Shown here: piece after piece, positions 762 through 1,336 of the stretch
How the letters are laid out: the number at the start of each line of letters is the position of its first letter
Position numbering within the stretch: position 1 is the stretch's first letter
Virus record (IMG/VR): IMGVR_UViG_2681813225_000011
DNA from: a virus
Taxonomy: Duplodnaviria; Heunggongvirae; Uroviricota; Caudoviricetes
DNA: 4,519 nucleotides
Reading direction: 5' to 3' (one strand)
Position numbers and translations under genes: made by a program
Notes under the pieces: model-generated
Database searches by the model: none
Told to the model about the DNA's origin: nothing
The model's input: the letters and a program-made list of their open reading frames with translations, nothing else

Positions 762-1178
762 TCACTGATAACAGAGAACTCGCGTGTCGTAACTTTTCTG
801 GCATGCAACTGGCGCTGACGGATCCTTTTGACTGAAATAGCAGTCTTCCAGTTTTTCGAACACATCCCACGCCTGATCGGTTTCGAGCATTTTTGCGTGG
901 CGGGCTGCTCCGCGTTCTGTCCAGAGGATAAGGGAGCGGGCTTTGGGAGAGATGGGATTTTGTGAGTAGTTTAAAGCTACCCGCAATTCTTTAAGGTCAT
1001 TACCAACAACTTTGAAAAAGTGTTTCCCTTCAACGAAGCGTACTTTGTTCTCATGATGATTCTGGCGAATACGCACCGGCTCAGTGCCGTAAAGCTGCGC
1101 CAAAAGTTCGGTGGTAATAACAGGAATCCGGTTATGGGTGATCGGGGAGAGAGTTTCAACAGAAATTTGAGTTGTCAT
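762..1178 (-). CDS. ORF6N-domain (phage antirepressor-like) protein, 138 aa
   Basis: ATG at 1178 with GAGGG Shine-Dalgarno about 8 nt upstream; TGA stop at 762-764. N-terminal region ...ITTELLAQLYGTEPVRIRQNHHENKVRFVEGKHFFKVVGNDLKEL...LWTERGAARHAKMLETDQAWDVFEKL matches the ORF6N antirepressor N-domain pattern as I remember it (LAxLYG, RF.EGKHF, TE.GA). Family call is from memory, not a search. Confidence 0.7.
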   Translation of the reverse strand: MTTQISVETLSPITHNRIPVITTELLAQLYGTEPVRIRQNHHENKVRFVEGKHFFKVVGNDLKELRVALNYSQNPISPKARSLILWTERGAARHAKMLETDQAWDVFEKLEDCYFSQKDPSAPVACQKSYDTRVLCYQ

Positions 1179-1336
1179 AATGACGCCCTCTGGTGGTTTC
1201 TAAACTATCACCACCGTCAGGTTCCAATCATCGGGTGGTGAGACGCACAGGGTTGGAACTACCGGGAAACCGACCGGCGAGCTTTTCAGCTCCCCCATGC
1301 GCCCCACCATAATTCAGATGTGCGCGTGCATACGAC

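Follow-up and report, generated by a model that had tools for sequence, protein, structure and literature searches.

Organization of the locus

The 4,519-nucleotide (nt) stretch of DNA analyzed here, referred to below as the window, belongs to the IMG/VR record IMGVR_UViG_2681813225_000011 of a virus of the class Caudoviricetes, and all of its genes lie on the minus strand. The gene in question (1178..762) encodes a 138-amino-acid protein with an ORF6N domain and, as a preliminary description made from the letters alone had stated, is the first gene past a Q-like antiterminator gene (2003..1449). It is interpreted here, with a probability of about 0.8, as the protein gene of a self-contained, RNA-controlled antirepressor cassette, which would be the Escherichia coli counterpart of the isrK-orf45-anrP locus of Gifsy-1, built like the immI region of phage P1, sited between Q and the late promoter and carrying a nonsense allele. 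The cassette extends over ~1452..621 of the minus strand. The features of the cassette and of the adjacent Q-like gene, with the evidence for each in brackets, are as follows (ORF, open reading frame; UTR, untranslated region; sRNA, small RNA).

1449..2003, minus strand: Q-like antiterminator gene of the DUF1133 type, distantly Q21-like (Pfam, PHROG and PDB sequence matches)
1423..1452, minus strand: cassette promoter, a PisrK homologue, with -35 element TTGACT (1452..1447), 18-nt spacer and -10 element TATATT (1428..1423) (promoter scan)
1340..1416, minus strand: IsrK-type sRNA and leader, 77 nt, with two 5' hairpins, a linker and a terminator (Rfam isrK, terminator scan, fold)
1231..1314, minus strand: C4-type antisense RNA, counterpart of Salmonella STnc1160, with a long closing stem and two hairpins (Rfam C4, fold)
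1200..1310, minus strand: upstream ORF (uORF) of 36 codons, positional counterpart of Gifsy-1 orf45 (ORF list)
1195..1227, minus strand: target sites in the antirepressor 5' UTR, namely a2 UUGGAAC (1227..1221), GGUGGUGA (1215..1208) and b2 GAAACC (1200..1195) (inverted repeats I3, I6 and I2)
762..1178, minus strand: ORF6N-domain antirepressor-type gene, truncated allele of 138 amino acids (aa) with an ATG start (Pfam ORF6N, PHROG 2379, identity to Gifsy-1 AnrP)
621..764, minus strand: nonsense codon TGA (764..762) and the remaining ancestral frame of 46 codons with its TAA stop (623..621) (base-by-base allele comparison)

The domain named in the preliminary description was confirmed by a domain search, in which the Pfam ORF6N profile (PF10543) matches residues 12-97 of the protein with 72.8 bits (cut-off 27.8; E 2.9e-20). 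Its assignment to the antirepressor type, also proposed there, is supported by the match to PHROG 2379 'anti-repressor' (E 1e-73; profile positions 1-139 of 187) and by 65% identity to the prophage-inducing AnrP of Gifsy-1 (187 aa, ORF6N). The neighboring Q-like gene matches Pfam DUF1133 with 350 bits and Phage_antitermQ marginally (26.4 bits), corresponds to PHROG 753 'anti-termination protein Q-like' and has as its best, though weak, PDB match the Q21 chain 6p18 (E 0.028).

The TGA stop codon of the Q-like gene (1451..1449) overlaps the -35 element of the cassette promoter, which is sigma-70-like and agrees with the consensus at 10 of 12 positions in the promoter scan; transcription would start at ~1416, seven bases past the promoter end. 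The RNA that follows matches Rfam isrK at 1416..1340 (77.5 bits; gathering threshold 50) and Rfam c4-a1b1 at 1429..1377 (50.1 bits; gathering threshold 46.7), and the terminator scan places an intrinsic terminator at 1361..1345, followed by a U-run. The arrangement is that of the isrK locus of Gifsy-1, with a sigma-70 promoter of its own directly 5' of an IsrK sRNA with an intrinsic terminator at its end. The preliminary description had read this terminator as tR'; it is the terminator of an sRNA with its own promoter. Two pairing sites lie on the sRNA and are designated, like the other sites, after the P1 GenBank record: a1 UUGGAAC (1391..1385) in the loop of the second hairpin, and b1 GAGACCG (1376..1370) in the linker. 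The matches of Rfam rsmX, istR, OmrA-B, anti-hemB, Trp_leader and sR58 in the window are weak, far below gathering, and are taken as chance.

Downstream of IsrK, the Rfam C4 model is matched with 71 bits (gathering threshold 45). The C4-type RNA has a predicted minimum free energy of -44.9 kcal/mol (z = -5.0), and equal stability was reached in 0 of 200 shuffled sequences. The loop of its hairpin 2 holds the site b' CGGUUUC (1272..1266), and its site a' GUUCCAA (1259..1253) is single-stranded, 3' of this hairpin. The third copies of the two sites, a2 and b2, stand in the 5' UTR of the antirepressor gene, in which b2 ends 4 nt 5' of the Shine-Dalgarno (SD) sequence GAGGG (1190..1186) and the AUG lies at 1178. 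The inverted repeats correspond to these contacts: I3 is a2 with a', I6 is b2 with b', and I2 joins 1208-1215 to 1234-1241. The preliminary description had reported two such pairings in the 5' UTR as possible modulators of translation. Both are real, with corrected sizes: the first, given as 8 bp, comprises 7 perfect pairs (1221-1227 with 1253-1259) and is the pairing of the C4 site a' with its target a2, whereas the second, given as CCACC/GGTGG, comprises 8 bp (1208-1215 with 1234-1241). A regulatory role is supported, the a2/a' repeat being an RNA-RNA contact that covaries across cassette variants.

The element GGUGGUGA, 8 nt located between a2 and b2, has its complement in the 3' strand of the closing stem of C4 and is kept in all cassette classes. 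Its pairing (1208-1215 with 1234-1241) is 99% paired and nearly invariant, with one covarying column, and is equaled in 17 of 500 shuffles; by our own reading of the P1 sequence, P1 also has a pairing of this type. A hairpin GGUGGU/ACCACC within the UTR (I5) was considered as a conserved element and rejected, as it is absent from the other site classes.

The AUG of the uORF lies inside the conserved 5' end of C4, at the position to which the orf45 AUG of Gifsy-1 (A107) maps, and its UAG stop is located 24 nt upstream of the antirepressor AUG. Across cassettes the uORF ranges from 16 to 45+ codons and its stop from 24 to 76 nt upstream of the antirepressor AUG, so the conserved core is the RNA and not the peptide. 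An AUGA stop/start overlap, as expected for translational coupling, occurs in the Gifsy-1/L094 class only and is absent from the window.

Covariation of the pairing sites

In 33 distinct upstream regions of related loci, the three copies of each site vary in concert. Among these regions, a1 occurs as GGAAC, GGCGU, AGCAC, AGGAAC, GGUCU or UGCAC, the b' loops fall into six families, and all 12 combinations of a and b found are self-complementary. In an alignment of 15 sequences, the a1-a' and a'-a2 helices are each 100% paired over 106 cells, with compensatory changes in 4 of 8 pairs and no one-sided change. The observed score was reached in 0 of 500 shuffles and slid controls were 13-47% paired; given the kinship and partial redundancy of the compared loci, the shuffle counts should not be read as probabilities and the covariation counts show consistency rather than independent events. 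The three-way covariation is nevertheless, like the cassette parts and their folds, directly observed.

Because the b loops differ by insertions and deletions, the b sites were assessed by their longest complementary runs instead of column-based covariation; b' and b2 share runs of 6-8 nt in 12 of 12 site combinations. RNAduplex gave ambiguous alternative pairings for b' and was left unused. A separate scan of IMG/VR, with the leader sequence as query and five free bases at a1, yielded 97 cassettes that could be parsed: a' is the exact reverse complement of a1 in all 97, and a2 equals a1 in 96. The sole mismatch, on IMG/VR contig 2875658422_000003 (L194), combines a2 GGCGU with a1 and a' of the GGAAC class; it is apparently a recombinant, and its sequence predicts escape from a-site control.

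Comparison with known systems and proposed mechanism

The closest described system is the isrK-orf45-anrP locus of Gifsy-1 (Hershko-Shalev et al. 2016, PMC4825925), where the map reads Q (STM2617), isrK, C4-like RNA (STnc1160), STM2616 (AnrP), isrJ, tRNA, holin, endolysin and Rz. The order is shared with the window and its relatives: Q gene, promoter, IsrK with its terminator, C4-like RNA, ORF6N antirepressor, short terminated transcript, tRNA and lysis genes. In Gifsy-1, other authors have demonstrated the dependence on the promoter, the a1-a' base pairs, the activation of translation by IsrK in trans and the prophage induction by AnrP, a function shown for this AnrP only: the homologous promoter is required for anrP transcription (280 vs 3 Miller units), IsrK in trans turns on translation of orf45 and anrP, and AnrP increases antQ-operon RNA and induces the prophage (PMC4825925). 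The proven pairs G28-C162 and G31-C159 coincide with a1 and a', and the equivalent of this helix between the middle of IsrK and the 3' part of the downstream RNA is the fully paired a1-a' helix with its compensatory changes. The two loci differ in their Q genes (Q82-like in Gifsy-1, DUF1133/Q21-like in the window), in the a site (GGCGU vs GGAAC), in the b' loop (UCGGUGAU vs UCGGUUUC) and in the uORF, which in the window ends 24 nt before the AUG and in Gifsy-1 overlaps it; furthermore, the window antirepressor gene has a nonsense codon.

The immI region of P1 and P7 (c4-icd-ant; Citron and Schuster 1990, as annotated in NC_005856) has the same order of parts, with promoter, a1, b1, hairpin with U-run, c4 containing a' and b', a2, b2 and ribosome-binding site (RBS), and the Rfam C4 and c4-a1b1 models match both loci. 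Both have the C4 fold, and in both a' and b' find their complements in two sets of target sites; in P1, C4 represses translation of icd-ant (NC_005856 annotation). P1 differs in that the window is a lambdoid prophage context and has no icd gene, so that the succession of icd and Ant is not found, and in the protein domains: ORF6N only in the window, ANT/KilAC only in P1 Ant1 and both in the Ant of RCS47. In the ant gene of this P1-like phage (L004, 2053-3168), an ORF6N domain is joined to the ANT/KilAC domain known from P1 Ant; the ORF6N domain has 81% DNA identity to part of the window gene, which points to domain exchange between P1-type and lambdoid antirepressors. A further parallel is the CI RNA of phage P4 (seqA/seqC immunity), likewise an antisense RNA that is released by processing and flanked on either side by copies of its target; a link of the Rfam C4 and isrK models with P4 CI and seqA has been drawn in published papers. 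The action of P4 CI differs in that it causes termination of the transcription of replication genes.

On these comparisons, the following mechanism can be proposed. Transcription would start from the sigma-70 promoter of the cassette, and most transcripts would end at the IsrK terminator to give the 77-nt sRNA with a1 and b1. Transcripts that read through would first contain the C4-type RNA, the carrier of a' and b', and then the antirepressor mRNA with a2 and b2 in its 5' UTR. Pairing of a'/b' with a2/b2 would keep the antirepressor untranslated, C4 blocking the RBS region; this repression through a2/b2 is inferred by analogy with P1. IsrK, which carries the same target sequences, would act as a decoy, competing for a'/b' and lifting the block, and the ORF6N protein would then inactivate a prophage repressor. 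Such a role of IsrK as a C4 decoy offers a possible reconciliation of the Gifsy-1 data with the P1 antisense model.

The Gifsy-1 authors favor a different account, in which the long transcript adopts alternative structures and translation of the antirepressor is coupled to that of orf45, with no part for C4-type repression (PMC4825925). Applied alone to the window, it would have IsrK in trans shift the long transcript from structure A to structure B and free the uORF RBS; the antirepressor would be translated by coupling, and the C4-like RNA would be a mere processing fragment with no role as a repressor. This account is backed by genetics, native gels and 30S footprints in Gifsy-1, and the uORF start codon is conserved in the window. 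As a coding unit, however, the uORF is not conserved, given its variable length and the restriction of the AUGA overlap to the Gifsy-1 class, and a2 and b2 covary with a' and b', which is expected only if C4 contacts the UTR too, as in P1. We therefore regard the Gifsy-1 account by itself as rather doubtful.

Several observations nonetheless weigh against the cassette interpretation with its C4-mediated repression. Besides the preference of the Gifsy-1 authors just described, extra STnc1160/orf45 left IsrK toxicity unweakened in Gifsy-1 (PMC4825925). In the window class, b2 lies off the SD itself, whereas in other classes it overlaps the SD, and the b1-b' pairing requires a G-U pair, the longest Watson-Crick run being 4. 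The relatedness of the compared loci limits the weight of the shuffle counts, as noted above. As for the position of the cassette, Sy et al. 2020 describe IsrK as the product of an antitermination-regulated promoter, and the hexamers of the late promoter proposed below are weak and failed the consensus promoter scan.

Position of the cassette relative to Q and the probable late promoter

Downstream of the ancestral antirepressor frame lies a further element.

502..612, minus strand: probable late-promoter unit (equivalent of PR'-qut-tR') of the DUF1133-type Q (position and conservation across loci)

It comprises a tentative -35 element TTGCAT (612..607), a 17-nt spacer, a tentative -10 element TTCAAT (589..584), a conserved 28-nt segment ACGCTTCGCAAAGCTGTATCGCGAGGCG (577..550) and a terminator hairpin (~525..508) with its U-run (507..502), the latter being the terminator that the preliminary description had correctly placed after the ORF. 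The fold of the unit has z = -3.0. As its hexamers are weak and failed the scan, the late promoter in the window is assigned on the strength of its position and conservation. In DUF1133-Q loci and phages without a cassette, a segment homologous to 640..490 directly follows the Q stop and precedes the holin, endolysin and Rz genes; likewise, the isrJ block directly follows Q82-like genes without a cassette, before holin, endolysin and Rz genes. For the 933W-type Q, the homology of the block starts exactly at the annotated late promoter and spans qut and the terminator. In contexts that bear a cassette, the block cognate to the Q type follows the cassette in 18 of 20 cases for DUF1133, 13 of 15 for Q82-like and 13 of 14 for 933W-like genes, and a block of a different Q type was found in none of them. 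This places the gene between Q and the late-promoter unit, the insertion point of the cassette being exactly the boundary of the Q stop codon and the probable late promoter.

According to the preliminary description, the promoter and terminator behind Q are PR' and tR', and the ORF6N gene is late, Q-dependent cargo that replaces the lysis genes. Its starting point is sound, as a promoter and an intrinsic terminator separate the Q-like gene from this ORF, the first to follow it; moreover, the cassette stands directly behind a Q gene in 52 of 115 cassettes sampled from IMG/VR, and the view of Sy et al. 2020 on the isrK promoter would agree with such an arrangement. Yet the gene upstream of these 115 cassettes codes for NinE 39 times, for a Q of the DUF1133 type 21 times, of the Q82-like type 16 times and of the 933W-like type 15 times, and for another protein 24 times; in every case its stop codon adjoins the -35 element. 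The homology between contexts starts at this element: TTGAC-18-(GGGGC)TATATT is kept in all genomic contexts, whereas the sequence further upstream is unrelated and wholly divergent. The promoter and leader are identical in cassettes that follow three unrelated Q families or ninE and in those of P1 and APSE phages. No relationship is detectable between the Q of Gifsy-1 and that of the window. Q proteins require their own specific sites. That the promoter at 1452..1423 doubles as a Q-dependent one was considered and rejected, since it serves three unrelated Q families and non-Q contexts as well.

The same conclusion follows from what lies beyond the cassette. Each Q type keeps its cognate block past the cassette, which for the 933W type is the annotated late promoter, qut and terminator, and in phages without a cassette the block abuts Q ahead of the lysis genes. 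Known Q-dependent cargo of the late operon, such as lysis genes or, in Shiga toxin (Stx) phages, tRNAs and stx, is located downstream of the late promoter, qut and tR'; the cassette gene is not so located in any of the three Q families. The likeness to such cargo consists in the vicinity of Q and in a downstream region that resembles that of Stx phages in its short terminated transcript, tRNA and STnc100, and the difference is that the window gene stands upstream of the late-promoter unit. The absence of holin and endolysin from the window, noted in the preliminary description, was verified with the ORF list and Pfam; in 99%-identical prophages, however, holin, lysozyme and Rz genes are found ~3.5 kb further downstream, and a replacement of lysis genes is not borne out. 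With its own conserved promoter, its placement between ninE and roi in other phages and the cognate blocks downstream in the synteny comparison, the ORF6N gene is not read from a Q-controlled promoter, and its description as late cargo is highly improbable. A promoter belonging to the gene itself was among the outcomes that the preliminary description had named as refuting its reading.

In VT2-Sakai and many other Stx phages, the cassette is located between ninE and roi, upstream of Q. The VT2-Sakai copy (H0107) has ~83-84% nucleotide identity to the window from the -35 element into the gene and belongs to the same b class; it differs in lying upstream of Q in the early-right operon, in its a class (GGCGU) and in a frame that is disrupted differently.

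The autonomy of the cassette and its place ahead of the late promoter caution against presuming that genes just past Q are Q-dependent and against taking IsrK as a late-promoter leader RNA. Three unrelated Q families have the cassette at the junction of Q and the late promoter, which would make this junction a site of repeated docking; IsrJ-like RNAs, not IsrK, would then be the true late-promoter leaders. The isrJ gene of Gifsy-1 (L115, 33406-33480) stands behind a Q82-like Q at the position that 502-612 of the window occupies behind the DUF1133 Q. Like lambda 6S RNA or StxS, the virulence-linked sRNA IsrJ may represent the leader transcribed from the late promoter, in this case that of Gifsy-1; no published statement to this effect was found. 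The block at 612..502 was also considered as an IsrJ homologue and rejected as such, for Rfam isrJ has no match in the window and the block is the positional counterpart for another Q type.

The nonsense allele

The ORF of 138 aa represents a nonsense allele; the gene proper encodes 185 aa. At gene position 415 the window has T where the three loci L038, L039 and L040 have A, which makes codon 139 TGA instead of AGA; their proteins are 96-98% identical to that of the window. A fourth locus (L034) encodes residues 1-138 identical to those of the window allele and has R at codon 139. In the window, the 46 codons beyond the TGA are still in frame. The intact alleles encode 185 aa and relatives 185-246 aa. 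The 138-aa allele is also present in four other loci (L001, L035, L036 and L037), so it is not a sequencing error.

The truncation removes the last 47 residues, which contain GW.V..(R/K)(D/E).L.E(R/K)L, the only C-terminal motif in common with AnrP. Full-length proteins of the AnrP type have ~185-187 aa and this C-terminal motif, whereas the window allele ends at residue 138. As the stop at codon 139 eliminates a conserved segment, the product of the window allele is probably impaired, while the RNA parts are intact. In a 99%-identical O157:H7 genome, the PGAP annotation pipeline labels the gene copy incomplete, and H0107 of VT2-Sakai departs from the family alignment past ~residue 120 and is a further decayed copy. 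A search of solved-structure sequences with the 185-aa protein gave no match.

It was proposed in the preliminary description that the protein could de-repress co-resident prophages on induction. For the truncated product this would mean that it still functions, as an antirepressor or as another ORF6N regulator. It keeps a complete ORF6N domain (residues 12-97), its allele recurs in at least four other loci, and antirepressors that act in trans between prophages are reportedly known from a Salmonella study. Against this stand the loss of the only C-terminal motif that AnrP and the other family members have in common, the incomplete annotation in the near-identical genome and the decay of other copies such as that of VT2-Sakai; retention of function is, on balance, unlikely. 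The module as such is known from Gifsy-1 and P1, and the window copy, an uncharacterized and probably decayed E. coli member, adds little to it in this respect.

Site classes and co-resident prophages

Overall, at least 6 a variants, 11 b' loops and 19 combinations of the two were seen. These site-specificity variants recall the heteroimmunity of P1 and P7. The many recombining a/b variants with perfect three-way complementarity predict RNA-level heteroimmunity or cross-talk among prophages in poly-lysogenic Shiga toxin-producing E. coli. Some prophages have two cassettes a few kb apart (L009, 3251-3875 and 6551-7163; L049; L127), which differ in the a class, the b class or both; in L009, UGCAC with the loop UCGGUGAU is accompanied by GGUCU with the loop UUCCUUUUUC. 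Paired cassettes that differ in this way would fit selection for non-interfering RNA specificities.

A tentative extension of the cassette interpretation, possible but less than even in our estimate, is that IsrK/C4 cassettes constitute a two-site RNA address code which sets the co-resident prophages that share antirepressor repression and de-repression, a copy with a broken protein and intact RNAs serving as a regulator at the RNA level. If so, the window copy could persist in strains with multiple lambdoid prophages, acting in trans on cassettes of the same class, and cassettes of Stx phages would be possible targets, VT2-Sakai having the b class of the window.

Downstream region and other features of the window

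Beyond the terminator of the late-promoter unit, the tRNA-like remnant mentioned in the preliminary description was recovered with Rfam tRNA.

385..456, minus strand: chimeric non-functional tRNA remnant with the 5' part of a tRNA-Ile(CAU) and the 3' part of a tRNA-Arg (BLAST, Rfam)

The Rfam tRNA match (37.3 bits, 456..397) covers model positions 7-64 only, and ARAGORN finds no tRNA in the window. BLAST aligns the remnant in two segments to the Ile-Arg-Arg tRNA array of another locus (L006), an array that occurs in other prophages, the Arg part being derived from the third tRNA and the two parts being joined in shared T-arm sequence. The acceptor strands are not complementary, so the paired acceptor stem and full cloverleaf of a functional tRNA are lacking. 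In NZ_CP038372, a sequence identical to the remnant is annotated by PGAP as tRNA-Met.

At 120-310 of the window, on the minus strand, the sRNA family STnc100 is matched with 135.7 bits (threshold 47), between the tRNA remnant and the position at which relatives have an esterase-like gene; a 2026 preprint ties STnc100 to PasD sRNAs and esterase genes. Positions 1-34 are the end of an IS2 element (insertion sequence), and relatives without it match from position 35 on. Genomes that share this IS2 junction have the esterase-like gene, which precedes holin and lysozyme, disrupted by the element. None of the complete E. coli genomes in the collection matches the entire window as a single piece; the closest genomes have 99% identity over 108-4519, in a Rac-like prophage whose downstream order is esterase-like gene, holin, lysozyme, Rz and terminase.

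Two toxin genes are located upstream of the Q-like gene, both on the minus strand. The first, at 3351-4034, encodes a Fic/Doc 'death-on-curing' toxin (164 aa) and is preceded by a 59-aa ORF that has no Pfam match and could be the antitoxin. The second, at 4246-4519, is a hokD-type toxin gene (51 aa, Hok/gef), accompanied by a partial match to the sok antitoxin RNA that ends at the edge of the window.

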